A stretch of DNA of 42,562 nt from Patescibacteria group bacterium (GTDB lineage: Bacteria > Patescibacteriota > Minisyncoccia > Phycocordibacterales > CSBR16-193). The position numbers were made by a program, and so were the translations under genes. Shown here in pieces: positions 14,981 through 30,553 of this stretch. The stretch covers positions 1 through 42,562 of the forward strand of contig JBNJGN010000002.1 of NCBI GenBank assembly GCA_051747785.1. Direction: 5' to 3'. The notes beneath the pieces are model-generated. The model was not told the origin of the DNA and ran no database searches. It was given only the letters and a program-made list of their open reading frames with translations. Every line of letters begins with the position of its first letter. The first letter of the stretch is position 1.

Positions 14981-15847
14981 ATGAAAATAGGAGCCCATAC
15001 ATCAACAGCCGGAGGTTATTCAGAAGCGGTAAAAAGAGTATCTCAAATAGGGGGAAACTGCTTGCAGATATTTTCTACTTCGCCCAGGAGTTGGAAGCCC
15101 GCCGATCCGGATGAAAAAGAGAAGGATAAATTTAAGGAGGCTATGGAAGATCACTCTGTTTCTCCTGTGTATTTCCATGCTTCTTATTTAGTAAATCTGG
15201 CCGGTTCAGAGGAGGTGCAAGAGAAGTCTGTCGGTGCTCTTGTTGCTGAACTGCAAGTCGCGGGAGATTTTGGTGTCAAAGGAACTACGGTTCATCTCGG
15301 CTCTTTTAAAAAGGGTAGATCACAAGATGGACAGAAGCCTCTATTTGAAGAAGACGAATCCGCCTATAAAGATCTTTTGGCTAACATAAAAGAGATATTA
15401 AAAGAAACTCCGGAAGAGACCCTTTTCATTATTGAAAATATGGGGACCCGTAAAATTGGGATGAGCTTGGAAGAGATCGCTTTTATAGTTGAAAAACTTA
15501 ACAGTTCTCGCGTGAGGGTCTGTTTGGATACCTGTCATCTTCATGCCGCGGGGGTGGATATATCTACAGCAGATCGGCTTGATAGTTTTCTGGGAAAGTT
15601 TGATGACCTTATGGGACTCTCAATGTTAGAGTTCTTTCATATAAATGATAGTAAAGATGACTTCGGTTCCTTACGGGATAGACATGAGAATATCGGTAAA
15701 GGAGAGATACCACAGAGTGTCTTTTCTCTGTTACTTAATCATTCTAAGACAAAAGATCTTCCATTTATAACTGAAGTACCGGGTTTTGAAGGTAAAGGTC
15801 CCGATAAAAAGAGCATTGATATTATAAAGGGTTTCTTGGAAAAGTAA
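14981..15847 (+). CDS. nfo: Deoxyribonuclease IV (AP endonuclease family 2)
   Basis: MKIGAHTSTAGG N-terminus, CLDTCHLHAAG and HINDS metal-ligand blocks typical of endonuclease IV. Confidence 0.9.
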   Translation: MKIGAHTSTAGGYSEAVKRVSQIGGNCLQIFSTSPRSWKPADPDEKEKDKFKEAMEDHSVSPVYFHASYLVNLAGSEEVQEKSVGALVAELQVAGDFGVKGTTVHLGSFKKGRSQDGQKPLFEEDESAYKDLLANIKEILKETPEETLFIIENMGTRKIGMSLEEIAFIVEKLNSSRVRVCLDTCHLHAAGVDISTADRLDSFLGKFDDLMGLSMLEFFHINDSKDDFGSLRDRHENIGKGEIPQSVFSLLLNHSKTKDLPFITEVPGFEGKGPDKKSIDIIKGFLEK

Positions 15848-15885
15848 GGTTCAATCCTTTGCTTCAAGGTAAATTTCACTGACTG

Positions 15886-15894
15886 TGTTAGTAT
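15886..15894 (+). promoter_or_regulatory. Extended -10-like box TGTTAGTAT, 8 nt upstream of ATG 15903
   Basis: TGnTAnnAT match immediately before the helicase gene. Confidence 0.4.
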
Positions 15895-15902
15895 GAATAA
15901 TT

Positions 15903-17576
15903 ATGAAACAGGCGGAAGCGCTTGATATTTTAAAAACGGGCAAAAATGTTTTCTTAACCGGTGAGCCCGGATCCGGTAAGACTTATGTCATAAATCAGTA
16001 TATTTCCTATCTTAAAAAGAGAGGGGTGGAGCCTGCAATCACTGCTTCTACCGGTATTGCGGCTACGCATATTGGTGGGTACACCCTCCATTCGTGGAGT
16101 GGTATAGGTATTAAGGATGAGATATCATCCTATGAACTTGATGCTTTAAATGAGAAAAAGCCTCTTGTGAAGAGAGTTAATGGTTCCGATGTTCTGATAA
16201 TAGATGAAGTTTCAATGTTGGACGGGAAAATACTGGATCTAGTAGATCGGGTCTTATGCGAATTAAGGAGAAGTGAAGAGCCGTTTGGGGGGATGCAGGT
16301 TGTTCTCTCCGGTGATTTTTTTCAGCTCCCGCCGGTTTCTCCTTCCGGAAGAACATTTGCTTTTGAGTCTTCTGTCTGGAGGAGGGCGCGTCCCGTAACC
16401 TGTTATTTGGATGAACAGTTTAGGCAGACTGATGAGAGTATGCATAAATTACTAAAAGCACTTAGAGCCGGTTCTCTAAAGGATGATCATCTGTGGCTGT
16501 TAAAAAGCCGTATTTGTGAAAAAGAAGAAGAGGTTTCTTATAGTGCCACCAAGCTTTTTTCGCACAATGTTGATGTGGACCGTATAAACGAAAGAGAGTT
16601 AGGTGAACTGAAAACAGAGAAGAAGGTCTTTGAAATGGAGACCAAAGGCAAGAAGGCCTTAGTGGAACAGTTAAAAAAAGGGTGTCTTTCTCCGGAGGTT
16701 CTTGTCCTAAAGGAGGGGGCGGTGGTGATGTGTACCAAAAATAATTTTGATAGAGGGTTCTCTAATGGAACGATAGGAACTGTTAAAGATTTTGAAAGGC
16801 ACACTCGCTATCCCATAATTGAAACCGTAGATGGACGTCGGGTAACCGTATCTGAAATGGAATGGGTAATTGAAGAGGAGGGTAAGATATTGGCAAGGAT
16901 CATACAGATACCTCTTCGGTTGGCTTGGGCTATAACGGTGCACAAAAGCCAAGGTGTCAGTTTGGATTCGGCAGTGGTAGATCTTACAAAGTCTTTTGAA
17001 TACGGCCAGGGTTATGTTGCTCTTTCCAGAGTAAGAACGCTGGAAGGTCTTTTCTGTTTGGGTTTTAATGATAAAGCTCTACAAGTGCATCCGAGCGTTT
17101 CTGAAATGGATAGGTGGTTCAAGAGTCACAGTGTGGCCATAGAAAAAAAGTTCACCTCTCTTAATGTTGATACGATAAAAGAAATGCACAGAAGGTCCAT
17201 TGTTTCCCTGGGGGGGAGTGAAAATGAAGTTAAAAGCTCAAATTCCAAAAAGAGCACAGAAAGGAAAATGAGTACCTATGATAAGACCGGTTCTTTACTG
17301 GAGGAGGCGAGTTCTTTAGAGGAGTTGGCTGAGTATAGAGGTCTTGCCGTCTCCACTGTTTTAGGTCATTTAGATAAGTTATCTCGCGAAGGACGTGTGC
17401 CGGAGTCCGCTCTTAAACGTTTTTGGAGAGCAAAGGGCAAAGGGGAAAAGGATTTGGAAGAGATACTGGAGGTATTTAGAACAACGGAAGAAGACAGGTT
17501 AAGTCCTGTTCGCAAAAAACTGAAAGGCAGGTTTGATTATGATGATCTTCGTTTGGCCAAGATGTTCCTTTATTGA
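15903..17576 (+). CDS. PIF1/RecD-like SF1 DNA helicase with a C-terminal helix-turn-helix extension
   Basis: Walker A LTGEPGSGKTY, Walker B LIIDEVSML, SGDFFQLPPV, and AWAITVHKSQGVSLD with GQGYVALSRV blocks. The C-terminus LEELAEYRGLAVSTVLGHLDKL is HTH-like. Confidence 0.85.
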   Translation: MKQAEALDILKTGKNVFLTGEPGSGKTYVINQYISYLKKRGVEPAITASTGIAATHIGGYTLHSWSGIGIKDEISSYELDALNEKKPLVKRVNGSDVLIIDEVSMLDGKILDLVDRVLCELRRSEEPFGGMQVVLSGDFFQLPPVSPSGRTFAFESSVWRRARPVTCYLDEQFRQTDESMHKLLKALRAGSLKDDHLWLLKSRICEKEEEVSYSATKLFSHNVDVDRINERELGELKTEKKVFEMETKGKKALVEQLKKGCLSPEVLVLKEGAVVMCTKNNFDRGFSNGTIGTVKDFERHTRYPIIETVDGRRVTVSEMEWVIEEEGKILARIIQIPLRLAWAITVHKSQGVSLDSAVVDLTKSFEYGQGYVALSRVRTLEGLFCLGFNDKALQVHPSVSEMDRWFKSHSVAIEKKFTSLNVDTIKEMHRRSIVSLGGSENEVKSSNSKKSTERKMSTYDKTGSLLEEASSLEELAEYRGLAVSTVLGHLDKLSREGRVPESALKRFWRAKGKGEKDLEEILEVFRTTEEDRLSPVRKKLKGRFDYDDLRLAKMFLY

Positions 17577-17680
17577 TAAGTTTGATCACTTTGGTGTCCT
17601 AATGGGAGAAGGTGGTATAATAGAGGTAATTGGATGATGTCGGTAAAATGGCCAAGTGATCATCGATAATATTTTAAAAG

Positions 17681-18634
17681 ATGAATAAAGGGTCCGTTTT
17701 AAAAATATTCACAGTTCTCTTTTTTGCGTTAGTGGCGGGAGGGTTTATTGTCTTTCATATATATGAAGGTTCGCCTTTTTATTTTGAATGGGGAAAAAAC
17801 ACCCATCAAGACCAAGATTCTTTTGAAGAGGGCGGGGAAACTGATGATAAAGAAGAGCCGATCAGAGAATTGTCTGAAGGCGATACTTACCATGAGGAAG
17901 AGAAGAGTAAGAATGATACCGTTACACCGGAGCCTTTGGAGTCCTTGGATTCAGATAGCGATAGTAGTGGACTACTTACAACAGAGGGGATCGTCCGTTA
18001 TACCAATGAAGAGAGGAACGGAGAGGGTCTTTCTTCTTTGGATGTCAATAAAAAACTTAAATCGGCAGCTAAGATCAAACTTAATGATATGTTCAGCAGG
18101 GATTATTTTTCCCATTATGATGAAGATGGTGGTATGGGTGTTAGTGTCTTGGCCGAGATGGTCGGTTACGAGGGTATAACAGTAGGAGAGAACTTGGCGA
18201 TGGGGCATTTTGAAAATGATAAGGATCTGGTTAAGGCCTGGATGGACAGCCCCGGACACAGGGCTAATATTATGAAGGGGGACTATATGGAAATAGGGAT
18301 AGCCACCAAAAAAGGAGAGTACCAAGGAAAAGAGGTGTGGATGGCGGTGCAGATATTCGGGCGACCTGTATCGGACTGTCCGATACCGGATGATGAATTG
18401 GAGATAGAGATAGAAGACAATAAAGCGGTTTTAGATGTATTATCAGAGGAAACGGAAGAATTAAAAACGAGGTTGAGTGAAAAAGAATATTCTGATGATG
18501 AAGAGTATAAAGAAGATCTTGAGCATTATAATTCTTTAGTTGAAGATCATAACGAACTCCTGGAGGAGACGAAGCTGATGGTGGAGCGTTTTAATACTCA
18601 GGTGGAAATATTCAATGATTGTGCCGGAAATTGA
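17681..18634 (+). CDS. CAP/SCP/PR1-like domain protein (YkwD-like), membrane-anchored, with an acidic C-terminal coiled coil
   Basis: N-terminal TM. CAP blocks YFSHYDEDGG, GENLAMGH and VKAWMDSPGHRANIM. Confidence 0.85.
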   Translation: MNKGSVLKIFTVLFFALVAGGFIVFHIYEGSPFYFEWGKNTHQDQDSFEEGGETDDKEEPIRELSEGDTYHEEEKSKNDTVTPEPLESLDSDSDSSGLLTTEGIVRYTNEERNGEGLSSLDVNKKLKSAAKIKLNDMFSRDYFSHYDEDGGMGVSVLAEMVGYEGITVGENLAMGHFENDKDLVKAWMDSPGHRANIMKGDYMEIGIATKKGEYQGKEVWMAVQIFGRPVSDCPIPDDELEIEIEDNKAVLDVLSEETEELKTRLSEKEYSDDEEYKEDLEHYNSLVEDHNELLEETKLMVERFNTQVEIFNDCAGN

Positions 18635-18646
18635 TAAAAAAGAAAT

Positions 18647-19255
18647 ATGACAGTGAAGTGTATCGTTTTTGATTTTGACGGAACCATCGCCGATTCTTAT
18701 AAGGAGGTAAAAAGGGTGGTAAATATAGAAAGAAAAAGCATCAAAACGGGAGGTGAGTTTGATAAGGTCAAAAAGAAAGGATTCAGGGGTATAATAGAGG
18801 AATTAAAAATACCTTTTTGGATGTTGCCCGGAGTTAGGTACTTGATATTAAGGAAATTGGAACCCTCTAATTTTGCTGTTTTCCAGGGCATAGAGGAAGA
18901 ACTCCGTTTACTCTCCGGAAAGTATGATATCGGCATAGTTTCCAGTAATAGTGGAAGGAATATAAGATCTTTTTTGGTTGATAATAGAATTGAAGATCTT
19001 TTCAGCTTTATTTATTCCGGAAGTTTTCTTTTTGGTAAGCATCGGATCCTTAAGAGAATATGCAGAGAGAGAAGACTGGACCCACAAGAGCTTGTCTATA
19101 TTGGTGACGAGGACAGGGATGTTATGGCGGCTAAAAAGGCCGGAGTTATATCGGTTGCTGTGAGCTGGGGCTATAACAATAAAGGTAGGCTAACGGAATG
19201 TTGCCCTGATATTCTTATGAACCATCCCGAGGAACTGAGGGATCATTCCTTTTGA
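18647..19255 (+). CDS. HAD-superfamily hydrolase (phosphoglycolate phosphatase-like)
   Basis: Motif I FDFDGTIADS, motif III/IV YIGDEDRDVMAAKKAG. Confidence 0.85.
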   Translation: MTVKCIVFDFDGTIADSYKEVKRVVNIERKSIKTGGEFDKVKKKGFRGIIEELKIPFWMLPGVRYLILRKLEPSNFAVFQGIEEELRLLSGKYDIGIVSSNSGRNIRSFLVDNRIEDLFSFIYSGSFLFGKHRILKRICRERRLDPQELVYIGDEDRDVMAAKKAGVISVAVSWGYNNKGRLTECCPDILMNHPEELRDHSF

Positions 19256-19295
19256 GTAAAAAATATAGATGAATTATACAAAAGACACTCATTTT

Positions 19296-19304
19296 TGTTA
19301 TAAT
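19296..19304 (+). promoter_or_regulatory. Extended -10 box TGTTATAAT, 6 nt upstream of ATG 19311
   Basis: Exact TGnTATAAT. It lies inside the 5' extension proposed by the ORF track, so ATG 19311 is preferred. Confidence 0.45.
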
Positions 19305-19310
19305 CTTTTT

Positions 19311-19976
19311 ATGAAAAATACCAAGATCAACATTCCAATAATTCTGATGTCTGCTTTTGTTCTGTTGCTTTTGTTGGCTGTCTTTTTACCGCCATTTTTC
19401 TTTTCGCCGGAAGAGGAGAAGGTTGTAAGGATAGAGAATAGGAGTGAATGGAGAACTTATGAAAATGACGAATTCGGTTTTTCTATAGATTATCCGCCGG
19501 ATTGGAGAGTTGAAGAATTTCCTGAGCACGAACTTGTTCCCAAGTTCCATATTTTACCTAAAGATGAAAAAGAGGTGGATGTTGAGAGAATGACCCATCA
19601 CACTGATGTTCAAAGTGTTTCCATTTTTCCGCAAGGATATCCGACGGAAGGTATTTTCGGGGAGTCCGGCTCCTCAAATGTCAATTTCGGCGAGGAAATA
19701 AATGAGGCCACTGATTATTACCTCTTAAACGGTGATGTTTGGGGCACAATGTTGAAACCGGAGACGGAGAAAGAAAAATGGAACGAACACGGCTTTGTAT
19801 GGGGCGTACTTCCCGTAAAAGAACACGAGATCGTGTGTTTTAAGGATGGAGAAGAGGTCTCCAAAGATAGATGTGATCCGGTTTCAGGGCATGAGATAAA
19901 ACACTCAGGATCTGTCAAAGAGCAAGATCGTCTTATACAAAAGGAGATACTGAGATCTTTTGAATTCAAGGAATAG
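19311..19976 (+). CDS. Hypothetical membrane-anchored protein, 221 aa
   Basis: MKNTKINIPIILMSAFVLLLLLAVFLPPFFF is an N-terminal anchor, followed by a soluble domain with no recognised family. Confidence 0.55.
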   Translation: MKNTKINIPIILMSAFVLLLLLAVFLPPFFFSPEEEKVVRIENRSEWRTYENDEFGFSIDYPPDWRVEEFPEHELVPKFHILPKDEKEVDVERMTHHTDVQSVSIFPQGYPTEGIFGESGSSNVNFGEEINEATDYYLLNGDVWGTMLKPETEKEKWNEHGFVWGVLPVKEHEIVCFKDGEEVSKDRCDPVSGHEIKHSGSVKEQDRLIQKEILRSFEFKE

Positions 19977-20184
19977 TAACTCTAACATCTTAAAAGTTGA
20001 AAAAATTGAATATAAATAAATACCAAGACGGCGGTTTCTGTCTTTCTGATTTTGTTTGGACTGTTGGTAGATATAAGGTTTAAAGATTCCGAATGTCCAC
20101 ATTGCAAAGATGTTAATTATCAATAGTGTTGTTAAGTTAAGGTTTCTATTATCTTGTGAAGTTTAAAAATGTTAAGGTAAAAAT

Positions 20185-20682
20185 ATGAAATTGGCCATAT
20201 TTTCAGATACACATGATAGTTTTGAAAATATTAGCAAAGCCATTAAGCTCTCTAAGGAGGAAGGGGCCGGAGAGGTGCTAATTCATTGTGGAGATATATG
20301 TGCCCCTGTTACCTTGGCACATATTATAGAAGAATGGTCAGGTGAGATACATTACTGTTTTGGCAATGTTGATGGAGATCATTTATCTACATTTAAGGTT
20401 CATAAAGATAATCCCAGTGTTCACGGCCACGGAGAGTCTCTGGGCAGTTTAAATGCCGATGGGAGAAGTATTGCTTTCCAGCACTATCCGGAGGTAGCAA
20501 GACGTCTTGCCGAGAGCGGAGCGTATGACGCCGTTTTTTATGGCCACACTCATTTAAAACATAGTGAATATATTGGTAAAACATTACTTGCCAACCCGGG
20601 TAATGTTTGCGGTATTAAGCATCCTCCCAGTTTCGCTGTTTATGATACCGTGAGTAATACGCTTGAACATATCGATCTTTGA
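20185..20682 (+). CDS. Metallophosphoesterase, YfcE/MJ0936 family
   Basis: IFSDTHD, HCGD, GNVDGD and GHTH metal-binding blocks in canonical order. Confidence 0.85.
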   Translation: MKLAIFSDTHDSFENISKAIKLSKEEGAGEVLIHCGDICAPVTLAHIIEEWSGEIHYCFGNVDGDHLSTFKVHKDNPSVHGHGESLGSLNADGRSIAFQHYPEVARRLAESGAYDAVFYGHTHLKHSEYIGKTLLANPGNVCGIKHPPSFAVYDTVSNTLEHIDL

Positions 20683-20732
20683 ACTGATTTGAAAGTCTTT
20701 AGTTTTCCCTCTCTCGCTACAAGATCATTGTC

Positions 20733-20753
20733 GCGCAACCGCATGGGTTGCGC
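20733..20753. terminator. Candidate hairpin terminator between the phosphoesterase gene and the tRNA
   Basis: gcgcaacc (20733-20740), loop gcatg, ggttgcgc (20746-20753), followed by TTTG. The U-tract is short. Confidence 0.45.
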
Positions 20754-20765
20754 TTTGTGCTCTTG

Positions 20766-20836
20766 TGCGAGATACGGGAATCGAACCCGTGCCTCAACCT
20801 TGGGAAGGTCGCGTTCTGCCACTAAACCAATCTCGC
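20766..20836 (-). tRNA. tRNA-Gly (anticodon CCC), 71 nt, CCA not encoded
   Basis: The reverse complement folds as GCGAGAT-TG-GTTT-AGTGGCA-GAAC-G-CGACC-TTCCCAA-GGTTG-AGGC-ACGGG-TTCGATT-CCCGT-ATCTCGC-A. This gives a 7-bp acceptor stem, a 5-bp anticodon stem and a canonical T-loop. Confidence 0.9.
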
Positions 20837-20917
20837 TTATGTGTGGATTGTCTATAAGTTTCGGCTTATCGTTATTGTTGCTATTATAGGATATGTTGAG
20901 GTAATAAAACAAGAGTT

Positions 20918-21433
20918 ATGGTTTCAGATGAATTAAAAAATTACGTTGTTGATAATTTAAGAGAGGGATGGGAAAAAGAAGAGCTGGAGAAGTCTTTGCT
21001 TGAGGCGGGGTGGCCGGAAGGTGAGATTGAAAGAGTTTTTGAGGAGGATGATGTAAAAGATCTTATTTCTAAACAGGAGGATTCCTCTTTGGATTTAGAG
21101 GAAGACATAGAGTATGAGGGAAAAGCAGAGAATTCTCAAGATGAGCAATCGACTAGCGATGTTGATGTTGACCCGCCACCACAAAAAACTCCTGAATCTT
21201 TTCTTGGGGAAGAAGTTATAGATCTTCCGGAAATAGAAGACCCGCCAGTACCAGAAAACCTATCCTCAGGTGGTTCTAAATTAAAAGCGGATCTAAACGC
21301 ATATATTAAAAATTCTTTGCAGAAAGGTTTTAGCGAGAGGACTATAAAGGCTGTCGCCAAAGAAGCCGGTTGGTCTGATGGGCAGATAGAGGAGGCGATA
21401 GAAGGTGACTCTAAAGAAAAAGGTAATTTTTAA
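20918..21433 (+). CDS. Hypothetical acidic protein, 171 aa: two copies of a ~40-aa helical module joined by an acidic/Pro-rich linker
   Basis: Module copies at 20927-21040 (ELKNYVVDNLREGWEKEELEKSLLEAGWPEGEIERVF) and 21287-21400 (DLNAYIKNSLQKGFSERTIKAVAKEAGWSDGQIEEAI). No signal peptide or TM. Confidence 0.65.
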   Translation: MVSDELKNYVVDNLREGWEKEELEKSLLEAGWPEGEIERVFEEDDVKDLISKQEDSSLDLEEDIEYEGKAENSQDEQSTSDVDVDPPPQKTPESFLGEEVIDLPEIEDPPVPENLSSGGSKLKADLNAYIKNSLQKGFSERTIKAVAKEAGWSDGQIEEAIEGDSKEKGNF

Positions 21434-21438
21434 TATTA

Positions 21439-22200
21439 ATGAATCGTAAGAAAGCTGGACAGATATTATTGCTATTGCTTTATGTTGTAAGTGCTTGTGT
21501 GCTCGTATTTTGGTTAGAACCAAGGTATATATTCACGGTTATTATCGTACTCGTTCCGCCTGCACTTTTGAATTTCTTTTGGCTTAAAAGGTCTCGTTTG
21601 AAAATACTGTTCTTTTCTTTAATGGCGATGTTATTCTTTGCGCCACCGGTAGAGCTTTGTGCTCGTCTGGCCGATGTCTGGGAAGTTCAAACCGTTTTTC
21701 CGGAGATACTGGGCTTTATACCTATAGAGAATATGATATTCGCTTTTCTTAATTTTTTCTGGGTCCTTACTTTTTATGAATATTTTGTTGATAAAGACAA
21801 AAGTGCCAATATTTCCGCGAAGTTCAAATATTTAATAGGAATGTTCTGTGGAGTCTCTATTTTGGTCTACGGCTTATATGCTTATGATCAACAGTTGGTA
21901 GCTTTGAGTTATTTTCAATTGGCTCTTTTGATACTTTTTATTCCCGCCCTTGCGCTTTTCAGTAAAAACCCCAAATTACTTAAAAAGACCATTTTAACCA
22001 CTTTCTTTTTCGCTGTTGTTTTTTTTGCTTACGAATTAGTGGCTTTGAAGATAGGGAACTGGTGGTGGCCGGGAGAGTATCTTTTTACTTTTACCGTTTG
22101 GGGAGAGATATTTCCTTTAGATGATGTAATAATATGGTATTTCCTTTCAACGCCAGTATTGATAGGAGGATATGAATTTTTTGTTGATGATTGGCAATAA
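21439..22200 (+). CDS. Polytopic membrane protein, lycopene-cyclase-domain-like (fused CrtYc/CrtYd-type)
   Basis: About 7 TM helices. It has two acidic P-x-(E/D)-(N/D) sites (IPIENMIFAF and FPLDDVIIWYF), one per half, as in heterodimeric-type lycopene cyclase domains. It starts 5 nt after the upstream stop. Confidence 0.45.
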   Translation: MNRKKAGQILLLLLYVVSACVLVFWLEPRYIFTVIIVLVPPALLNFFWLKRSRLKILFFSLMAMLFFAPPVELCARLADVWEVQTVFPEILGFIPIENMIFAFLNFFWVLTFYEYFVDKDKSANISAKFKYLIGMFCGVSILVYGLYAYDQQLVALSYFQLALLILFIPALALFSKNPKLLKKTILTTFFFAVVFFAYELVALKIGNWWWPGEYLFTFTVWGEIFPLDDVIIWYFLSTPVLIGGYEFFVDDWQ

Positions 22201-22315
22201 AAGGTAAGTCTAAATATTTTATATTAGTCTTTTGTAATTGAATGTGGACTATTTTCTTACAGTTTTTCTTTATTGTTGTTAATATAAAGAAAGTATATGA
22301 GCTGTTTTTCATTTT

Positions 22316-25300
22316 ATGGTACCCGAGGAACTTAAAAAATACGTTATAAAAGCCCTAAGAAGGGGTTTTACCAAATATGCCATAAGGGCAGCTGTTTCTA
22401 ATTCCGGCTGGTCTAAGGAACAAGTTGATGAGGTTTTTGCGGATGACGATGTCAGAGAGCTTACTTCTCTAAGAGAGGATATTCCTGAGCCTGAGAAAGA
22501 GGATGACGAAGTAGAGATAGAAGAAGCTCCCAAAAAAGAAAGTGAAGAACCTCGGGGAGATAGTTCTTCTGAAAGGGAGAATTCTTCTAAGGAAGCACAG
22601 TCTAATGAAAGCAAAAGAGAAGTAGATGAAGAACTGAGAAAATACCTGGTAAGTCATCTAAAGGAGGGTTTTAGTGGGTCTGTAATAAAAGATGTTGCTA
22701 TTGAATCAGGTTGGCCGGAGGAGGATCTTGATGAGGCTTTTGAGGATCCTGAGATAAAGTCTCTTCTTTCTGATTCAGAAAATGGTGAAGAAGAAGCGGC
22801 TGAAAATGAAGAGATGCCAGAGGAAGGTAAAAGTGGTTCAGAAGACAGCGAAGGTAGGTTAGAGGGCAAAAGTAAGGACGAAGATAAAAATGAAGAACCA
22901 AATAGTGATAATCAGGAACAGAAAAAGGAAGTAGGAAAAGAAGATAAAAAAGTGAATAAGAGAGGAGTCGCAGTGGATGACCATAAAGGAAACGGAATGA
23001 AGATGATTTATGCAAAGGACGCTGAGAAAGAGAAAGATGAGAACTTAGTGGGTAATGAAAAGAAGAAAGAGAGTAATGAAGACGAGCAAGGGGGTCAAAA
23101 ATATACCAAATCAATACCTACATCAGAAGATGCTTTAGATATATCAGATAAGGAGGGCAAGGATGATGTTGAAAAAAAAGAGAAAAAAATATCTGAACAG
23201 GAACAAAAAGAAAATGCTACCAGTGAAAAGACCCGCCCCTCATCAGAGGACACCTCTTTTGCTGAGAAGGAAGAGACGACAGAGAAGGTAAAAGAAAAGG
23301 ATCAAGAAACCGATAAACCGGAAGCCCCCCTAGAGTCTAAAGAAGTAGAGTCTAAAGAAGAACCTAAGAAAAAGACCCGCCCCTCATCAGAGGCTGAACC
23401 CGTTGAGAAAGAGGGTACATCTCAGCCAAAGAAAGAAGAGCGATCTACTAATCCAGATGAGAAGACTGGTGGTGAATCCGAAGAAAAGACTCACCCTTCT
23501 TCGGAGGCCGAACCCGCAGAGAAAGAGGGTACATCTCAGCCAAAGAGAGAGGAGGGATCTACTGATCCAGATGAGAAGACTGGTGGTGAATCTGCAGATG
23601 AAGACGGGCCTTCTTTAGAAGAGGCTTTATCCTTGGTAGAGAAGAAAAGAGGTGGAGAGAGTAAGAATAGAGATGATAATAATTCTAATAAACCGGAATA
23701 TCCCGATAAACCGGAAGCCCCCTTAGAGTCTAAAGAAGTAGAGTCTGAAGAAGAAACTAAGAAAAAGACCCGCCCTTCATCAGAGGCCGAATCCGCAGAG
23801 AAAGAGGGTACATCTCAGCCAAAGAGAGAGGAGGGATCTACTAATCCAGATGAGAAGACTGGTGGTGAATCCGAAGAAAAGACCCGCCCCTCATCAGAGG
23901 ACACCTCTTTTGCTGAGAAGGAAGAGACGACTGAGAAGGTAAAAGAAAAGGGTCAATATCCCGATAAACCGGAAGCCCCCTTAGAGTCTAAAGAAGTAGA
24001 GTCTGAAGAAGAAACTAAGAAAAAGACCCGCCCTTCATCAGAGGCCGAACCCGCAGAGAAAGAGGGTACATCTCAGCCAAAGAGAGAGGAGGGATCTACT
24101 AATCCAGATGAGAAGACTGGTGGTGAATCCGAAGAAAAGACCCGCCCCTCATCGGAGGCTGGGTCAGTAGAGAAAGAGGGCTCAGTTCAGCAAAAGGGAG
24201 AAGAACATTTTGATGAAAGTTCCAGGAAAAAGGAGGGTTCCAAGGAAGAGTTGGATCTTGAGGGAAGTACAGGTGCAGGACAGATAAATAACGCTGAAGA
24301 GCTTGAAGAAAAGGAAGTGGAAAAAGAAAGTATGTCCGGCGATGGTGAAGAAAAAGAGGAGCGGGAAGAGGAATTTAAAAAAAAAAGAATAAACAGTAAC
24401 GAAGAATTAAAGACAACAATCAATGGTGCCAAAGAAGAGGAAGAGGAAGGTAAAAGCACAAAGAGAGTGGATGCAAAAAGTGAAGACGAGAGCGGTATTT
24501 TTATTGCGGAAGAAAAAGAGGGGCTCCGTGAGAAGGACAGAGATAATATGGAAAAAGCACCGGTTTTTGAAGAGGTGGTGGAAAGATCACCTCAGCAAAA
24601 AACTTCCAAAGAAGTATTTGCTAAAAGAGATAATATGACAAAAATGGGAACATACAATAAGCAGCAATCAGATCAAAGTGCTCGCGGTCCTCGTTCTCAA
24701 GATAAGAGCCGTTTTTCAGGTCAAGAGAGGCCTTCTTCTGAAGGAGGGTTATCTTCTTCAGGTGATTCTTATCTGTCAAAAGAAGAATTAGATAACATTG
24801 TTTCTGTTCAAAAAGGAGAGGATTTTAATATAAAAGAATACAGAAATGATCACAGGAATAGACAGAATTCCTCTGTGGAAGAACAGGCTAGAGGATACCC
24901 CTACGGACCCTATCCTCAGCAACCTATGCCAATGGGCCAACCTATGCAACAGCCCTACGGACCCTATCCGCAACAGCAGATGCCAATGGGTCAACCTATG
25001 CAACAGCCTTACGGACCCTATCCTCAGCAACCTATGCCAATGGGCCAACCTATGCAACAGCCCTACGGACCCTATCCGCAACAGCAGATGCCAATGGGTC
25101 AACCCATGCAACAGCCTCACGGACCCTATCCTCAGCAACCTATGCCAATGGGCCAACCTATGCAACAGCCCTACGGACCCTATCCGCAACAGCAGATGCC
25201 GATGGGCCAACCCATGCAACAGCCCTACGGACCCTATCCGCAACAGCCAATGGGAGGCCAACCCATGCAACAGCCAATGGGAGGCCAGCCTATGCAACAG

Positions 25301-26764
25301 CCTTACGGATCTTATCCGCAACAGCAGCCCTTTGGACAACAACGTAACACCAGGCCTCCACAGGGCTCAGGTTATTCAGTACAGTCTGCTTCCGGGTGGG
25401 GATCGGGGTCATCTTACGGAAATCCCGGTAATGATGTTGGTGCGCCTGATTATTCCGGAACTTCGCAGTTACCGGTTGATCGTAAATCGAAAAGTAATCA
25501 GTTTGAGGAAGATCATAAAGAAACTTCAAGAAAATACGTTGGAGAAGATAAATTAAATCCTTTGCTTAAAGAGTACGTAATAGAGAGTTTTGAAAAAGGT
25601 TTTCGTAAGTCATTAATAAAGGAGGCTATCAGAGATTCCGGTTGGCCTGAGAGCGAAGTTGAGAGAGTTTTTGGTGATAGAAAGGTCAGAGAAAGGATCG
25701 CGGAAATAGTGAGTCGCAGAAATGAAGAAGAGAGAAGCAGTAAACCTAAGAAAAAGACCCGCCCCTCATCAGAGGCCGAACCCGCAGAGAAAGAGGATAC
25801 ATCTCAGCCAAAGAAAGAAGAGCGATCTACTAATCCAGATGAGAAGACTGGTGGTGAATCCGAAGAAAAGACCCGCCCTTCATCAGAGGACACCTCTTTT
25901 GCTGAGAAGGAAGAGACGACTGAGAAGGTAAAAGAAAAGGGGCAATATCCCGATAAACCGGAAGCCCCCCTAGAGTCTAAAGAGGAAAAGAAAGCCATCC
26001 ATAACACAGTCCCCAATCAAGAAAACAAGAAAAAGATCCGCCCCTCATCAGAGGCCGAACCCGCAGAGAAAGAGGATACATCTCAGCCAAAGAAAGAGGA
26101 GGAATCTACTAATCCAGATGAGAAGACTGCTGGTGAATCTGAAGATAAAACTACTTCCTCTTTAGAAAATTCCTCTTTAGCCAAAGGGGGCGTGGCGACT
26201 GAAGAGAAGGGAGAAGAAGATACTGATAATCTTGAGGCCAAAAAAGTTTCTCAGTTCAAAGAGAAAGAAGGGGATTCTTCTTTGGAAAAAGATAAATCAT
26301 CAAGAAATAGAGGAGAGATACCATCGGTCAATGAATTATCTCAAGATGAATCTGCTAAAAAGCTCCAGGAAAAAGAGGGTAGTAAGAACGGAGTGGAGCA
26401 AGGGCCGGAAAAAGCCCCTTCTCCCGAAGGGGGAGAGAAAAAACTTACATATGGATCGGAGAAAGAAGAAAAAGCTTCTCCTACTCCTAAAGAGCCCCCT
26501 TCTCCCGGAGAAGAGCCTGCACCCGCACCTTCTCCTGAAGAGAGCCGGAGCTCTTCTGTTAACGAAGATTTAACCGCTAAAGAAGGTGATAAACTTGATA
26601 GCGATGAACCATCTTCTGCTGGTAGGCGGGTTAAAAGAGATATCTCAAACCCTGCTTCTTTCTTTGTAGAAAATTCAAGTGCTTGGTCTGAAATACAAGG
26701 ACAAGAAGATGGAAATAAAGAGAATAAAGGAGGAAAATCTCAAAACACATCTGAGAGTAATTAA
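22316..26764 (+). CDS. Giant (1,482 aa) acidic, low-complexity repeat protein with three copies of the ~40-aa module, KTRPSSE-type repeats and a P/Q/M/G/Y-rich tract
   Basis: An uninterrupted 4.4-kb frame in AT-rich DNA. Modules at 22322-22438, 22625-22741 and 25553-25678. No signal peptide or TM. E/K/S/P-dominated elsewhere. Confidence 0.8.
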   Translation: MVPEELKKYVIKALRRGFTKYAIRAAVSNSGWSKEQVDEVFADDDVRELTSLREDIPEPEKEDDEVEIEEAPKKESEEPRGDSSSERENSSKEAQSNESKREVDEELRKYLVSHLKEGFSGSVIKDVAIESGWPEEDLDEAFEDPEIKSLLSDSENGEEEAAENEEMPEEGKSGSEDSEGRLEGKSKDEDKNEEPNSDNQEQKKEVGKEDKKVNKRGVAVDDHKGNGMKMIYAKDAEKEKDENLVGNEKKKESNEDEQGGQKYTKSIPTSEDALDISDKEGKDDVEKKEKKISEQEQKENATSEKTRPSSEDTSFAEKEETTEKVKEKDQETDKPEAPLESKEVESKEEPKKKTRPSSEAEPVEKEGTSQPKKEERSTNPDEKTGGESEEKTHPSSEAEPAEKEGTSQPKREEGSTDPDEKTGGESADEDGPSLEEALSLVEKKRGGESKNRDDNNSNKPEYPDKPEAPLESKEVESEEETKKKTRPSSEAESAEKEGTSQPKREEGSTNPDEKTGGESEEKTRPSSEDTSFAEKEETTEKVKEKGQYPDKPEAPLESKEVESEEETKKKTRPSSEAEPAEKEGTSQPKREEGSTNPDEKTGGESEEKTRPSSEAGSVEKEGSVQQKGEEHFDESSRKKEGSKEELDLEGSTGAGQINNAEELEEKEVEKESMSGDGEEKEEREEEFKKKRINSNEELKTTINGAKEEEEEGKSTKRVDAKSEDESGIFIAEEKEGLREKDRDNMEKAPVFEEVVERSPQQKTSKEVFAKRDNMTKMGTYNKQQSDQSARGPRSQDKSRFSGQERPSSEGGLSSSGDSYLSKEELDNIVSVQKGEDFNIKEYRNDHRNRQNSSVEEQARGYPYGPYPQQPMPMGQPMQQPYGPYPQQQMPMGQPMQQPYGPYPQQPMPMGQPMQQPYGPYPQQQMPMGQPMQQPHGPYPQQPMPMGQPMQQPYGPYPQQQMPMGQPMQQPYGPYPQQPMGGQPMQQPMGGQPMQQPYGSYPQQQPFGQQRNTRPPQGSGYSVQSASGWGSGSSYGNPGNDVGAPDYSGTSQLPVDRKSKSNQFEEDHKETSRKYVGEDKLNPLLKEYVIESFEKGFRKSLIKEAIRDSGWPESEVERVFGDRKVRERIAEIVSRRNEEERSSKPKKKTRPSSEAEPAEKEDTSQPKKEERSTNPDEKTGGESEEKTRPSSEDTSFAEKEETTEKVKEKGQYPDKPEAPLESKEEKKAIHNTVPNQENKKKIRPSSEAEPAEKEDTSQPKKEEESTNPDEKTAGESEDKTTSSLENSSLAKGGVATEEKGEEDTDNLEAKKVSQFKEKEGDSSLEKDKSSRNRGEIPSVNELSQDESAKKLQEKEGSKNGVEQGPEKAPSPEGGEKKLTYGSEKEEKASPTPKEPPSPGEEPAPAPSPEESRSSSVNEDLTAKEGDKLDSDEPSSAGRRVKRDISNPASFFVENSSAWSEIQGQEDGNKENKGGKSQNTSESN
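23228..24250 (+). repeat. In-frame coding repeat cluster 1: 144-nt A units and 114-nt B units
   Basis: Each unit starts aagacccgccc (KTRPSSE). A units start at 23228 and 23879, with a partial copy from 23697. B units start at 23372, 23486, 23765, 24023 and 24137 (degenerate). Confidence 0.9.
24899..25327 (+). repeat. Tandem 54-nt (108-nt super-unit) coding array encoding PYGPYPQQ(P/Q)MPMGQPMQQ
   Basis: Units start at 24899, 24953, 25007, 25061, 25115 and 25169, followed by degenerate units to about 25327. Odd and even units form two alternating sequence classes. Confidence 0.9.
25754..26146 (+). repeat. In-frame coding repeat cluster 2 (B-A-B), downstream of module 3
   Basis: B at 25754, truncated A at 25868, B variant (aagatccgcccc) at 26033. 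The sequences are near-identical to cluster 1 units. Confidence 0.85.
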
Positions 26765-26774
26765 TATAAATATT

Positions 26775-27071
26775 ATGGAAAATATAAAAATAGAAGTTAA
26801 AGAGAAGATCGCTGATAAAGAAGGGGGAGTTTTCCATGTTACTGTTGCAGATGGTGAAAGTAAAAGTGAACACTCTGTTTCTCTTACCGCAGATACTCTT
26901 AAGAGATTAGGAAGCGATAGGGGTGCGAGTGAATTAGTCAGAGAAGCTTTTGAATTTTTTTTGCAAAAAGAAACTAAGGAATCTATCTTTAAGAGTTTTG
27001 ATATTTCCGAGATAGCGGACCATTTCCCTGAATTTGAAGATGTTATTACAAAAAGAATGAATAATAAATAA
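26775..27071 (+). CDS. Small conserved-looking hypothetical protein, 98 aa
   Basis: ATG at 26775 lies 10 nt after the giant gene's stop. The sequence is MENIKIEVKEK...HVTVADGESKSEHSVSL...ELVREAFEFFLQKETKESIFKSFDISEIADHFPEFED. The 26679 start in the ORF track overlaps the giant gene and is rejected. Confidence 0.55.
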   Translation: MENIKIEVKEKIADKEGGVFHVTVADGESKSEHSVSLTADTLKRLGSDRGASELVREAFEFFLQKETKESIFKSFDISEIADHFPEFEDVITKRMNNK

Positions 27072-27112
27072 AGGGTGGTAAGATTAACCTTTATATTTTT
27101 AACTTATAAGTT

Positions 27113-29863
27113 ATGAAGAATGAACAAGAGAGATCGTGGGAGTCTAATTCATATCATAAAGATGCAGAAGAGGTTGTAGAAAATTTTTCTACTGATCCTG
27201 ATGTAGGACTTACTTCTTCCGAAGTAGAGAAGCGTTTAAAAGGATACGGTCCGAATAAGCTACCGGCATCAAAACCGGATACTATATTCAAAATATTCAT
27301 AAGGCAGTTCAAGAGCCCTCTTATCTATCTTCTTTTGGTTGCTTCTGTGGTTCTTTTATTTTTGGGTGATACAGTTGACGCTGTTGTTATTCTTATTGTT
27401 TTACTGTTTAACTCTGTCCTAGGGTCTTTTCAGGAAGGGAAGGCACAAAATGCTTTGGAGGCATTGAAGAAGATAGCTACTTCCGAGGCTCTTGTTTTAC
27501 GTGACGGCGTAGAAAAAGTGATTGAAGACTCCATGCTTGTTCCGGGGGATATTATCACTCTCCATGATGGAGATAAAATACCGGCTGACGCTCGCATTTT
27601 ATCTGTTAACAATTTCAAGGTTTCTGAGTCTGTTCTTACCGGAGAGTCCAAACCTGTACCTAAAAAAGAAAAGACACTGGAAGAGAAGGAGCTTGCTCCT
27701 GCAGATCAGGTCAATATGGTTTTTAAGGGAACGTATGCTGTTTCCGGAAATGCCAAAGCGGTAGTTGTTGCTACGGGGCTTGATACTATGGTGGGAGCTA
27801 TATCGGCCAAGTTGGGCGCCATTAATACTGAAGTTCCCCTTAAGCATCGGATAGAAGATCTGTCTGGATTTATCATTAGAACCATTCTGTTGATAGCCAT
27901 CGGTGTTTTTTTGCTGGGGGTTCTGATGGGGGTAGACGTTTATTCAATGTTGCTTGTTGTTATCGCGATAGTTGTTTCTACTATCCCGGAAGGGTTACCA
28001 GTTGTCATTACGCTTGTTTTGGCTACCGGGGTATGGAGAATGAGTAAAAGAAATGCTCTAGTGAAGAGACTACAAGCAGTAGAGGCTCTTGGTCAGGCTA
28101 AGGTTATAGCTGTTGATAAAACCGGTACCATTACGAGAAATGAATTAATGGTGAAGGAGGTCTTAATTGACGGCAAGAATCTCAAGGTTACAGGTGTGGG
28201 TTACAAAAATGAAGGTGAAATAAAAGAAGAAAATGGGCAAGTATTAACTGCTAAAGACAGCTTAACTCTGGAGCGTTTAGCTGAAGTGGGAGCTTTTACT
28301 TCTGACGCCTGGGTTAGCTACAACGAAGAAGAGGACATTTGGCAGGTATCCGGCGATCCCACGGAGGCTGCTGTAAGAGTTTTTGCGGAGAAAGGGGGAG
28401 TTATTAAAGAGAACATGGAAGATCGTTATAAAAGAGTTTTTGAGATACCCTTTAGTTCCGATAATAGATTCCACGCTGTCATTAACAGGAAAGAAGATGA
28501 AGATGTGCTTTCGGTGACCGGTGCTCCGGAAGTTGTCTTATCAAAATCGGAAAGTATTTTTGAACAGGGTGAAACAAGATCTTTAAGCGAAGAGGAAAAG
28601 GAAGAGATAAAAAGCAAGGTTTACGATATGTCGGAGAGAGGTCTTAGGGTTATCGCTTTTGCTTTTTCGGAAAATGTTGGTGACAGGGTCAGGGAAGAAG
28701 ATATGCCACCATTAACCTTTTTGGGATTAGTAGCGATGTCAGATGTAAGAAGGGAGGGGGTAAAAGAAGCCGTAAAGCGTGTTCGTCAGGCCGGGGTTGA
28801 TCTGATAATGATAACCGGTGACCACAAGATCACTGCTCGTGCTATAGCAAAGCAGGTTGGAATATATAAAGAAGGCGACAGGATCATCTTGGGTTCCGAG
28901 CTTGATTACATGACACCTAAAGACCTTGCGAGTGCTCTTCCGAGTACTTCGGTTTTTGCCAGAGTGACACCGGAACATAAGCTGAAGATAATTGAAGGTT
29001 ACAGAAAACTGGGGCAAGTGGTAGCAATGACTGGTGATGGGGTTAATGATGCCCTGTCTCTGGCTTCTGCTGATTTGGGTGTTTCTATGGGTAAAACGGG
29101 TACCGAAGTTGCCAAAGAGGCTTCAGATATAATTCTTTTGGATGATAATTTTGGAACTATTATTTCGGCCATGGAGGAAGGTAGGGCAATATTTAACAGG
29201 ATAAAGAGAGTTGTTGTGTATCTCTTTTCTACAGGTTTAGGTGAGATATTTACTATTACCGCAGCTATCATTTTAGGACTCCCTCTTCCTCTTTTGGCTG
29301 CTCAGATAATTTGGTTAAACGTTCTAACTGATGGTATTTTGGTTGCTCCTCTTTCCATGGATCCGAAAGAGAAGAATATTCTGAAAAGAAAATTCAGAAA
29401 GCCTAAAAGATGGGTTATAGATAAATTTATGGCTTCTCGTGTTATTGTTATGGGTGCTACTATGGCAACTGTAACTCTTTTTCTTTTTTATCATTATCTA
29501 CCGGATCTCTCCAGCCTGGATAATCTGTCCGATCAAGGATTTGAAGATGTTATGAGAAAGCCATGGACTATATCCCTTACCATGCTTGCTGTTTTTCAGT
29601 GGTTTAATATTTGGAATGTAAGGACTACCACTTCTAGTATTTTTTCAAGAAAGCTTTTCTCCAATAAGTGGCTTCTACTGACAATGGCGGCTGCCGTACT
29701 TTCACAAATAGCGGTTGTTTATGTTCCTTTCTTGCAGGATATATTTAGAACAGCTTCTTTGAGTCTGTCCGAATGGGGTATCATCTTGAGTTTTGGTTTG
29801 ATCATTATATTGGTTGAGGAGGTAAGAAAACTGGTAGCCAGGATCCGTAAGAAAAGAACTTAA
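27113..29863 (+). CDS. P-type cation-transporting ATPase (P2-type, Ca2+/cation pump-like)
   Basis: TGES, IPEGLP (TM4), phosphorylation site DKTGTIT, MITGD and TGDGVNDA, with 10-TM topology. Confidence 0.9.
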   Translation: MKNEQERSWESNSYHKDAEEVVENFSTDPDVGLTSSEVEKRLKGYGPNKLPASKPDTIFKIFIRQFKSPLIYLLLVASVVLLFLGDTVDAVVILIVLLFNSVLGSFQEGKAQNALEALKKIATSEALVLRDGVEKVIEDSMLVPGDIITLHDGDKIPADARILSVNNFKVSESVLTGESKPVPKKEKTLEEKELAPADQVNMVFKGTYAVSGNAKAVVVATGLDTMVGAISAKLGAINTEVPLKHRIEDLSGFIIRTILLIAIGVFLLGVLMGVDVYSMLLVVIAIVVSTIPEGLPVVITLVLATGVWRMSKRNALVKRLQAVEALGQAKVIAVDKTGTITRNELMVKEVLIDGKNLKVTGVGYKNEGEIKEENGQVLTAKDSLTLERLAEVGAFTSDAWVSYNEEEDIWQVSGDPTEAAVRVFAEKGGVIKENMEDRYKRVFEIPFSSDNRFHAVINRKEDEDVLSVTGAPEVVLSKSESIFEQGETRSLSEEEKEEIKSKVYDMSERGLRVIAFAFSENVGDRVREEDMPPLTFLGLVAMSDVRREGVKEAVKRVRQAGVDLIMITGDHKITARAIAKQVGIYKEGDRIILGSELDYMTPKDLASALPSTSVFARVTPEHKLKIIEGYRKLGQVVAMTGDGVNDALSLASADLGVSMGKTGTEVAKEASDIILLDDNFGTIISAMEEGRAIFNRIKRVVVYLFSTGLGEIFTITAAIILGLPLPLLAAQIIWLNVLTDGILVAPLSMDPKEKNILKRKFRKPKRWVIDKFMASRVIVMGATMATVTLFLFYHYLPDLSSLDNLSDQGFEDVMRKPWTISLTMLAVFQWFNIWNVRTTTSSIFSRKLFSNKWLLLTMAAAVLSQIAVVYVPFLQDIFRTASLSLSEWGIILSFGLIIILVEEVRKLVARIRKKRT

Positions 29864-29932
29864 ATTTTCACAGGTGTGGATGTTCATTTTTGTGATCTGT
29901 TGTAGTATTAAGATAAGTATCATCAATTATTT

Positions 29933-30553
29933 ATGAATTTAATAATACTTTTTCAGATAACCGTAGCTCTTTTGACGTTGGTTTTAATGTTTCTTGTTTT
30001 TGATCTCCGGGTAGGTGGAAGAAGACGTTCTAACGGATCTTATCTACCTGCGGTTGTTGGAGCTCTTTTGCCTTTATATGGATTGGGTTATCTCTGGGTG
30101 CTCTTTTATTCTTTTAATTCGTTGACCGTATTTGATCAGATATCCTTTGTATTTATTTCGGTGGGATTCGTGATGGCGGTAAAGGCTCGTATGGATCTAA
30201 GGGGTAATTATGCTTGGCCTGGGCAGTTCATGGAAGAGATAAAAATTGTAAAATCGGGAATATATGCCTATATACGTCATCCCATATATACCGGAGTGGG
30301 GCTTTTTCTGATCGGTACGCTTTTTACGGTTGTGGTTCATTCAGATCTGATATTAGGAATGCCGTTAGCTGTTCTGTCTGCTTCCTTGCTCGCTCTTTTG
30401 GCTTCTGTGGCCCGTCATGAAGAGTCTTGCCTTGCCCGTGAACTGGGAGATGTTTATGTTGCTTATGTTTGTGAAGTCCACGCGGTTTTGCCTTTTTCTC
30501 AAATTAAAAAAGAAGAAAAAAAGAGAAATAACGAGAAAGATGAAGCTGACTAG
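29933..30553 (+). CDS. Isoprenylcysteine carboxyl methyltransferase (ICMT)/phospholipid methyltransferase-family membrane protein
   Basis: Multi-TM protein with the family signature VKSGIYAYIRHPIYTG...EE. Confidence 0.7.
   Translation: MNLIILFQITVALLTLVLMFLVFDLRVGGRRRSNGSYLPAVVGALLPLYGLGYLWVLFYSFNSLTVFDQISFVFISVGFVMAVKARMDLRGNYAWPGQFMEEIKIVKSGIYAYIRHPIYTGVGLFLIGTLFTVVVHSDLILGMPLAVLSASLLALLASVARHEESCLARELGDVYVAYVCEVHAVLPFSQIKKEEKKRNNEKDEAD

Follow-up and report, generated by a model that had tools for sequence, protein, structure and literature searches.

A RecX-like three-helix module shared by a small and a giant disordered protein of Patescibacteria, and its likely placement on the cytoplasmic side of surface proteins

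A complete contig of 42,562 bp from a Patescibacteria metagenome-assembled genome (MAG), hereafter the window, in which nearly all genes lie on the plus strand, encodes two soluble proteins of very different size that share a short helical module, present in two copies in a small protein of 171 amino acids (aa) and in three copies in a giant of 1482 aa. Between their genes lies the gene of a polytopic membrane protein. The question raised by this locus is whether the three genes form a functional unit, with the modules attaching the giant to the membrane protein, or whether the module has a wider role of which the locus is one instance. The three-gene locus proved to be no conserved system, and what is new here is best seen as a RecX-like three-helix repeat, unannotated so far, that serves in cytoplasmic tails or as a building unit of scaffolds. 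The features of the three genes are as follows (ORF, open reading frame; HMM, hidden Markov model):

20918-21433, plus strand: ORF of the small module protein (171 aa, NCBI ACQESA_00355), consisting of a module, an acidic linker and a module
20927-21040, plus strand: module S1, a three-helix core followed by the fourth-helix extension EEDDVKDLIS
21287-21400, plus strand: module S2, of a subtype lacking the fourth helix; its position is kept as a clade in six lineages
21439-22200, plus strand: ORF of the polytopic membrane protein (253 aa), of a Patescibacteria family with two internal repeats
22316-26764, plus strand: ORF of the giant module protein (1482 aa), with three modules in a disordered E/K/S/P-rich chain
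22322-22438, plus strand: module G1, the copy used for AlphaFold2 modelling (pLDDT 92)
22625-22741, plus strand: module G2, matched by the independent HMM described below
23228-24250, plus strand: first block of 38-aa repeat units beginning KTRPSSE(A/D), seven interspersed units
24893-25324, plus strand: tandem repeat of Q, P, M, G and Y only, with an 18-aa unit PYGPYPQQPMPMGQPMQQ in about 7 copies
25553-25678, plus strand: module G3, of the 'NPLLK' subtype, conserved in seven lineages as the final module of giant-like proteins
25754-26146, plus strand: second block of KTRPSSE repeat units, three units
26624-26671, plus strand: conserved C-terminal motif RRVKRDISNPASFFVE of the giant, with the core [ST]NPxSFF

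In-frame translation of the five module stretches reproduces the peptides quoted in the initial annotation of this DNA, and Y7, G15, G29 and W30 are invariant across the five copies. An independent HMM, built from the modules of other proteins with the window sequences excluded, matched the three copies of the giant with domain E-values of 5e-14, 1e-10 and 6e-12 and the two copies of the small protein with 2e-14 and 8e-14. The module is a real domain, because this HMM recovers all five copies far beyond chance; it found no sixth copy in the window. The 38-aa core reads xLxxYIxxxLxxG[FYH]xxxxIxxxLxxxGWxxxxIxxxF, to which a short fourth helix is often added. AlphaFold2 modelling of G1 with a 110-sequence alignment returned a three-helix bundle with helices at residues 2-13, 18-28 and 32-39 and a short fourth helix at 42-48, the latter corresponding to the 'DDDVRELTS' extension. 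The conserved positions of the module are hydrophobic residues and Gly only, and its net charge is centred on zero (range -10 to +9); the copies of the window are mostly acidic (-7 to +3), and their third helix is acidic. The module as an autonomously folding helical domain, for which neither Pfam nor NCBIfam has a dedicated family, is supported by these data.

Neither the module nor the giant, nor a 98-aa ORF downstream of the giant, was assigned to a family when the locus proteins were scanned against Pfam (2025 copy) and NCBIfam (June 2026). Among 101 proteins that carry the module, the most frequent Pfam matches were to RecX_HTH1 (19), RepB_primase_C (14), DUF494 (6) and UBA (4), most of them being sums of weak stretches. 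In sequence searches of the PDB with two module profiles, significant matches were obtained only to de novo designed helical proteins, and the natural matches (RecX, TetR and the UBA domain of EF-Ts) had E-values of at least 0.1. A Foldseek search of the PDB with the module model returned nothing significant (best E=2.9, TMq 0.53, entry 4bxu), a query of 49 residues giving such a search little power. The published full-text literature that was searched contained no description of the module, nor of the family of the membrane protein.

By profile comparison, the nearest natural relative of the module is the three-helix repeat of RecX. The alignment of the module with residues 76-115 of E. coli RecX, its second repeat, covered 40 columns with a probability of 72.5% (hhalign, model A4 of the module, E=3.3e-5), and NCBIfam RecX models matched up to 17 of the 101 carriers. 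The two have in common tandem three-helix units of 40-50 aa (PF21982, PF02631 and PRK00117 for RecX) and the pattern h..[FY]I....KG[FY]....I...L...G[IW]..... In the window itself, the small protein reached 15.6 bits on RecX_HTH1, for which the cut-off is 26, the giant gave no match, and neither protein was matched by an NCBIfam RecX model; a few relatives just attain the cut-off, among them P0184 with 27.1 bits. The chains of RecX in the PDB matched the module profile with E=0.6-1 (hmmsearch). A RecX-like three-helix repeat is therefore a description that the resemblance supports; distant homology is probable, and membership in the RecX family is not established. The initial annotation had been unable to place the module in a named family, which still holds in that neither library has a model for it, but a distant relative can now be named.

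The architecture, however, differs from that of RecX. RecX is soluble and basic, measures about 150-270 aa, is made of exactly three repeats in direct succession, and acts on RecA filaments. The module occurs in 1 to about 12 copies with long disordered linkers, is neutral to acidic, and is found either in polyanionic proteins or on the tails that membrane proteins extend into the cytoplasm. These differences bear on a possible RecX-like role, in which the modules would bind RecA filaments or nucleic acid and thereby tether DNA or the recombination machinery to the membrane. Such a role would agree with the hhalign match, with the RecX models of NCBIfam and Pfam that match 17-19 of the 101 carriers, one of which JGI names OraA/RecX, and with weak matches to TetR-type helix-turn-helix (HTH) domains. 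Yet the sub-threshold score of the window proteins, the weak PDB matches, the average module charge of 0 with mostly acidic copies in the window, and the differing copy number, linkers and membrane-tail context all speak against it, as does the absence of a recA gene among the annotated ORFs of the window, and we consider this role very unlikely. UBA-like, TetR-type HTH and Pex14 N-terminal bundles also share with the module a compact three-helix form with a Gly-aromatic turn after helix 1. The module matches them weakly (UBA in 4 of the 101 carriers, TetR_N with E=0.16), and the best Foldseek match mentioned above is the Pex14 N-terminal domain bound to an LVxEF peptide of Pex5, not significant at E=2.9. 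This likeness is at the level of a generic fold.

Outside the window, the module is widespread. Among 1.84 billion representative sequences, the profile of the five window copies retrieved 1,049 protein clusters at E<=1e-3 and 93 at E<=1e-10, the retrieved carrier proteins being 79-5,173 aa long. Most carriers have 2-4 copies of the module and a few have up to about 12; the typical layout is a signal peptide or N-terminal transmembrane (TM) segment, a large ectodomain, a TM segment and then 2-6 modules. Among the 149 best-scoring representatives, the modules all follow the last TM segment in 91 and precede the first in 18, and 37 have no TM segment. Lys and Arg are enriched on the module side of the TM segment in 82 proteins, compared with 10 showing the opposite, and the modules are therefore cytoplasmic. 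The ectodomains of the carriers are of surface-protein types, including CBM96, Big_7, NPCBM_assoc, Laminin_G_3, PKD, beta-helix, TSP3, MopE and PGF-pre-PGF.

Other arrangements were also found. In one carrier of a Nanoarchaeia archaeon, five modules are followed by an LPG_synthase-like polytopic domain, and a Nanoarchaeota family combines two modules with three TM segments; the genomic context of the latter protein (P0229) was uninformative. A metagenome scan with the module alignment gave a single locus on a JGI metagenome contig (L081, 1444-2997), in which one N-terminal module is followed by a TM segment and then by motifs of an L,D-transpeptidase (YkuD-like) and of an S11 D-Ala-D-Ala carboxypeptidase. 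These enzyme motifs were read by eye, and on this reading the module would be fused to peptidoglycan enzymes. A homologue search by word index with the 110-sequence module alignment yielded 327 candidates and 1 match, the index being unable to seed a profile of 39 columns. The distribution of one small domain over unrelated membrane proteins and soluble multi-copy proteins resembles cohesin-dockerin systems or the adaptors of eukaryotic adhesion receptors, as an architectural analogy with no relationship of sequence or fold.

The relatives of the window indicate which part of its locus is conserved. Orthologues of the small protein (150-222 aa) were found in six loci (L001, L077, L084, L085, L086 and L087), of which L001 belongs to a sister MAG. 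Integrity of the giant ORF had been set in advance as a test of the locus, and intact orthologues of 472-1294 aa were found in independent assemblies. The three-gene arrangement is present in the sister MAG, where the giant has 1294 aa, and on a Logan contig of 2.5 kb (L077), where the membrane protein is 73% identical; it was seen only in the window and in these two, and a lineage whose membrane protein is 74% identical (L078-L080) lacks it. In five further loci (L082, L084, L085, L086 and L087), a tandem cluster of module genes occurs with no homologue of the membrane protein in the locus. The small protein of these clusters has 132-222 aa and 1-2 modules, and the giant-like one has 472-1266 aa, 2-5 modules and a net charge of -29 to -173; a protein of medium size, with 393-462 aa and 3-4 modules, is often encoded as well. 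Near the C-terminus of the giant-like protein, the [ST]NPxSFF motif stands in four of the five loci, sometimes together with a TM segment. In assembly GCA_964396045.1, the module cluster and the membrane gene are on separate contigs. With five clusters free of the membrane gene, the conserved entity is thus a paralogous array of module genes. The conserved array consists of a small two-module protein and a long disordered acidic protein, and the membrane gene stands between module genes only in the sub-lineage of the window.

The paralogy of the two module proteins, as the initial annotation had claimed from their heads, was supported and extended. Their first residues align without gaps, with 20 of 51 identical, and in BLASTP the entire 171-aa protein is collinear with residues 1-143 of the giant (module, acidic linker, module; E=9e-16). 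The small protein is therefore a paralogue of the N-terminal module-linker-module cassette of the giant, and the likeness reaches over its whole length. That neither protein has a TM segment was likewise borne out, the highest hydropathy over 19 aa being -0.04 in the small protein and 0.66 in the giant. A neighbour-joining tree of 42 modules grouped them by position, with the second module of the small protein, the last 'NPLLK' module of the giant and the other modules as the groups. Every module position thus dates back to before the lineages split and has been kept since.

The C-terminal motif of the giant is also retained, its [ST]NPxSFF core being present in five of six giant-like orthologues. 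The giant of the window ends 30 aa past the SNPxSFF motif; in the relatives from L082 and L086 a TM segment follows the [ST]NPxSFF motif, and that from L084 has a TM segment with no exact match to the motif. Two of these proteins (P0125, L082 8201-10996, and P0126, L084 7001-9232) carry a Cys-containing domain of about 130 aa after the TM segment, presumably extracytoplasmic, and a third (P0132, L086 4964-6382) is a giant-like relative ending in the TM segment. A pilin-like nature of the C-terminal domain of P0125 and P0126 was considered; a PDB sequence search gave no pilin match, and it is not claimed.

The membrane protein has a distribution of its own. Its family counts 312 homologues, with 52-95% identity among the 120 matches listed, from diverse Patescibacteria (Levybacteria, Paceibacterota, Falkowbacteria and others). 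Residues E72, E97, N98, E199, D228 and D229 are invariant, and 55 positions are invariant in a sample of 23 sequences. The family has no recorded Pfam match. An alignment of the N-terminal with the C-terminal half spans 88 columns and brings the acidic motifs of the two into register (hhalign E=0.019), and AlphaFold2 gave a confident model (pLDDT 91, pTM 0.90) for which Foldseek found no fold match in the PDB. Many TPA-assembled MAGs encoding the protein (L004, L007, L011, L012, L015, L018 and others) bear the names 'Woesearchaeota', 'uncultured Gammaproteobacteria' or 'Saccharibacteria'; such names seem doubtful, so that record titles allow only limited taxonomic inference.

The initial annotation had regarded the membrane protein as a lycopene-cyclase-domain protein, a description that can be kept in part. 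Like the Lycopene cyclase domain proteins of PF18916 (CrtYc/CrtYd heterodimers and fused forms), it consists of a polytopic unit repeated in tandem, with invariant acidic motifs in either copy (PPVE and P[IL]EN in one, YE and PLDD in the other), and the halves of the family consensus aligned to nearly the full Lycopene_cyc model of 92 positions, one at 23.7 bits (E=7e-5), the other at 16.1 bits (E=0.018). The duplicated acidic P-x-E/D repeats and a distant resemblance therefore stand. However, the scores are all below threshold, the window protein reaching 12.1 bits on Lycopene_cyc (PF18916; cut-off 27) and only three of 23 homologues matching it (best E=0.076), and no carotenoid context accompanies them. 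Neither crtB/crtI nor any other carotenoid gene was found in the 42.5-kb window, as had been noted initially, and there is none among the conserved neighbours of the membrane gene, the clusters of which were not individually annotated. Identity of 52-95% across diverse Patescibacteria suggests a different, housekeeping substrate; given its merely distant resemblance to lycopene cyclases and its lack of a carotenoid context, the protein is probably a housekeeping enzyme or transporter.

The distribution of the membrane protein also bears on the idea, put forward in the initial annotation, that the modules dock the acidic polymer onto this lycopene-cyclase-like protein and so form a membrane-tethered scaffold or condensate. 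In its favour are the three-gene arrangement itself, in which the small and membrane genes of the window, the sister MAG and L077 are separated by 5 nt or overlap by 4 nt (in the window, a 5-nt gap between the stop of the former and the start of the latter), and the generally membrane-proximal position of the modules. Yet in 75 genome loci of the membrane gene, searched with the module HMM up to 8 kb on each side, modules were found in one, that of the sister MAG, and 74 had none. The most widely shared neighbour of the membrane gene occurred in 11 of the 75, in a comparison of neighbour clusters that were not individually annotated. The five related module clusters that lack the membrane gene and the separate contigs of GCA_964396045.1 point the same way. 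Finally, the membrane protein is 95% identical between the window and the sister MAG, compared with 60% for the small protein and 40-54% for the giant as its supposed partners, so there is no sign of co-evolution. Neither a conserved neighbourhood nor a functional unit of the three proteins was upheld by these results, and we consider the tether extremely unlikely. The membrane protein is a separately conserved Patescibacteria family and a lineage-specific neighbour of the modules, not a conserved partner of them.

Comparison with the sister MAG places the divergence of the module proteins in context. Most flanking proteins are 94-99% identical to their counterparts, AP endonuclease and PEMT 85-88%, and the 98-aa ORF 79%. 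The small protein has a dN/dS ratio of 0.46 and the giant one of about 0.24, which points to real genes under relaxed purifying selection, with change mostly in the linkers and repeats; the length of the giant varies accordingly among relatives (1482, 1294 and 931 aa). Positive selection was considered as the cause of the fast divergence and rejected, dN/dS being 0.24-0.46. Across the compared segment (14981-30553 against L001), dS forms a mosaic spanning 0.04-0.65, with 0.04-0.06 in the CAP, HAD, 235-aa and metallophosphoesterase genes and 0.41-0.65 in the Pif1, AP endonuclease, ATPase and PEMT genes, which suggests recent recombination between lineages. The window's own module genes are an ordinary, fast-evolving paralogous pair encoding disordered acidic proteins.

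Taken together with the carriers described above, the module is a cytoplasmic, membrane-proximal unit, usually present in 2-6 copies. It either forms the tail of single-pass surface proteins or stands N-terminally in polytopic membrane proteins and in peptidoglycan enzymes. In the Paceibacteria-like clade of the window, the same module is encoded by a tandem array of paralogous soluble genes, whose members are a two-module mini-protein and a long disordered polyanion with three position-conserved modules and a conserved end motif of basic residues and SNPASFF. The modules may act as protein-protein interaction units and the small and giant proteins as multivalent adaptors or scaffolds under the membrane, where they would bind the same partners as the module tails of membrane proteins, or each other. 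We infer this function with about even confidence. It retains part of the earlier proposal that the modules are docking domains, since about 110 of the 149 best carriers have them in several copies, close to the membrane on its cytoplasmic side, and drops the part in which they dock to the membrane protein.

Several observations weigh against this function. Only fold-determining residues are conserved, leaving no obvious conserved binding surface, and the modules could be folded spacers. Foldseek gave no significant match in the PDB that would relate the fold of the module to a characterised interaction domain. The tight packing of the small and membrane genes in three genomes makes a lineage-specific functional link between the two possible. 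The 150 best matches are biased to multi-copy proteins, because scores add up, and the named carrier taxa are Nanoarchaeota and Paceibacterota, only a handful of the carriers being named.

The spacer possibility can be taken further, with the modules as stable folded beads that have no specific partner and the disordered chain as the functional part, acting as an entropic brush, as a crowding or osmotic agent, or, through the Q/P/M/G/Y repeat, as a condensate former in a salt-adapted cell. In favour of this, conservation in the module is restricted to core hydrophobic and Gly positions, linkers and repeats change and resize quickly (the three lengths given above), and the proteome, described below, is acid-shifted. 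Every module position, however, is kept as an orthologous clade while its surroundings change, and the same module has repeatedly been selected as the cytoplasmic tail of unrelated membrane proteins. Moreover, the Q/P/M/G/Y repeat is confined to the window and the sister MAG, so it is not the conserved function. This alternative is accordingly judged unlikely.

Interaction through the modules could also be part of a broader arrangement. The module may be a common cytoplasmic 'handle' of the host-attachment and envelope machinery in ultra-small episymbionts (DPANN archaea and Patescibacteria), borne as a tail by dozens of surface proteins, polytopic proteins and peptidoglycan enzymes that are otherwise unrelated, with the soluble multi-module proteins cross-linking the tails into a cortical scaffold through contacts between modules or between module and SNPASFF motif. 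As a whole this is speculative, and we would not expect it to hold in full. If true, it would describe a prokaryotic counterpart of adhesion-receptor adaptor networks, common to two domains of life. A domain present in a thousand or so clusters at the least, for the most part as the cytoplasmic tail of a large surface protein, lacks a model in Pfam and NCBIfam, and the named carriers are ultra-small, host-dependent bacteria and archaea. A tail domain shared with soluble multi-copy proteins offers a testable entry to how these cells anchor, position or regulate attachment proteins from inside. The supposed link to a carotenoid-type membrane enzyme is removed as a false lead, and the membrane protein is flagged as a separate, strongly conserved family of Patescibacteria.

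The composition of the two soluble proteins raises the further question of whether their charge is functional. The giant contains 18% E, 12% K, 11% S and 8% P and has a net charge of -119; that of the small protein is -30. The disordered chain of the giant includes about ten 38-aa KTRPSSE units and seven 18-aa PYGPYPQQPMPMGQPMQQ units, copy numbers that are uncertain in a short-read assembly. The giant had been called extremely acidic, but its charge per residue amounts to -8 per 100 aa, which several other proteins of the window equal or exceed, up to -14. Extreme acidity as a special property of the giant was rejected, the proteome of the whole window being acid-shifted: most of its proteins are net negative, and the CAP-domain protein at 17681-18634 has -14 per 100 aa. 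The shift may reflect salt adaptation. The isolate names of some relatives point to saline waters ('Old_saline').

Downstream of the giant lies a gene for a P-type ATPase, preceded by the 98-aa ORF, and upstream of the small gene a tRNA gene:

20765-20836, minus strand: tRNA-Gly(CCC), the upstream boundary of the module cluster
26775-27071, plus strand: acidic ORF (98 aa), with its ATG 10 nt past the stop of the giant and no module
27113-29863, plus strand: P-type ATPase (916 aa), closest to type IIA (PMR1/SERCA-like) Ca2+ pumps

The ORFs of the locus, including the membrane gene, the 98-aa ORF and the ATPase gene, lie where the initial annotation had placed them. The best models of the ATPase were TIGR01522 (647 bits, cut-off 798) and TIGR01116 (585 bits, cut-off 703); from these scores it is likely to belong to the type IIA subfamily, below the equivalog cut-offs. 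It follows the module cluster in five of seven informative loci (the window, L001, L082, L084 and L086) and does not in L085 and L087. The 98-aa ORF, for which no family or PDB match was found, is 49% identical in L082 (homologues at L082 11010-11294 and L084 9219-9500); it always stands directly 5' of the ATPase gene, a pairing seen in three lineages. It may belong with the pump and not with the module genes, because it is absent where the ATPase is absent, in L085 and L087.

This neighbourhood could suggest that the polyanionic giant and the small protein act with the downstream PMR1/SERCA-like ATPase as a low-affinity, high-capacity buffer or sensor of Ca2+ or other divalent cations. The net charges of the two proteins, the type IIA Ca2+ pumps as best models of the ATPase and its position after the cluster in five loci are consistent with this. 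However, the ATPase is not beside the cluster in the remaining two loci, and adjacency carries little information in a region whose synteny extends beyond 20 kb. The charge density of the giant is within the range of the acid-shifted proteome, Pfam and NCBIfam scans gave no EF-hand or other Ca2+ site, and a cation buffer would leave unexplained the folded modules and their occurrence on unrelated membrane proteins. We therefore hold a role in cation handling to be improbable, and prefer the modules as interaction units of sub-membrane adaptors.

Regarding expression of the locus, promoter and terminator scans gave matches at chance level. The spacer between the membrane gene and the giant gene (22201-22315) is AT-rich and 115 nt long. 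A match to a promoter-like sequence, TTGGCA-16-AATATT (22191-22218), is the sole one on the plus strand of the locus that stands just 5' of a gene start. The giant gene may have its own promoter, because this match directly precedes its start, and the small and membrane genes are likely to be co-transcribed. Two ORFs in alternative frames (24788-25342, minus strand, 184 aa; 24846-25556, plus strand, 236 aa) overlap the Q/P/M/G/Y repeat of the giant; both are by-products of the periodic composition of the repeat and not separate genes.

The remaining gene content of the window is that of an ordinary chromosome, with genes for a MacB-type ABC transporter, Pif1, MreB/MreC, two PBPs, MraW and RRF, together with an M50 (RseP-type) site-2 protease and a class II tRNA synthetase. 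Among the Nanoarchaeota contigs, two (L090 8505-10884 and L092 4927-7306) have genes for a 389-aa LAGLIDADG-type protein and a methyltransferase inserted between the genes of POR subunits. An otherwise identical contig (L089, 8505-9608) is free of the insertion, and the POR alpha subunit beside the insertion is shortened, with 338 aa compared with 367 aa.

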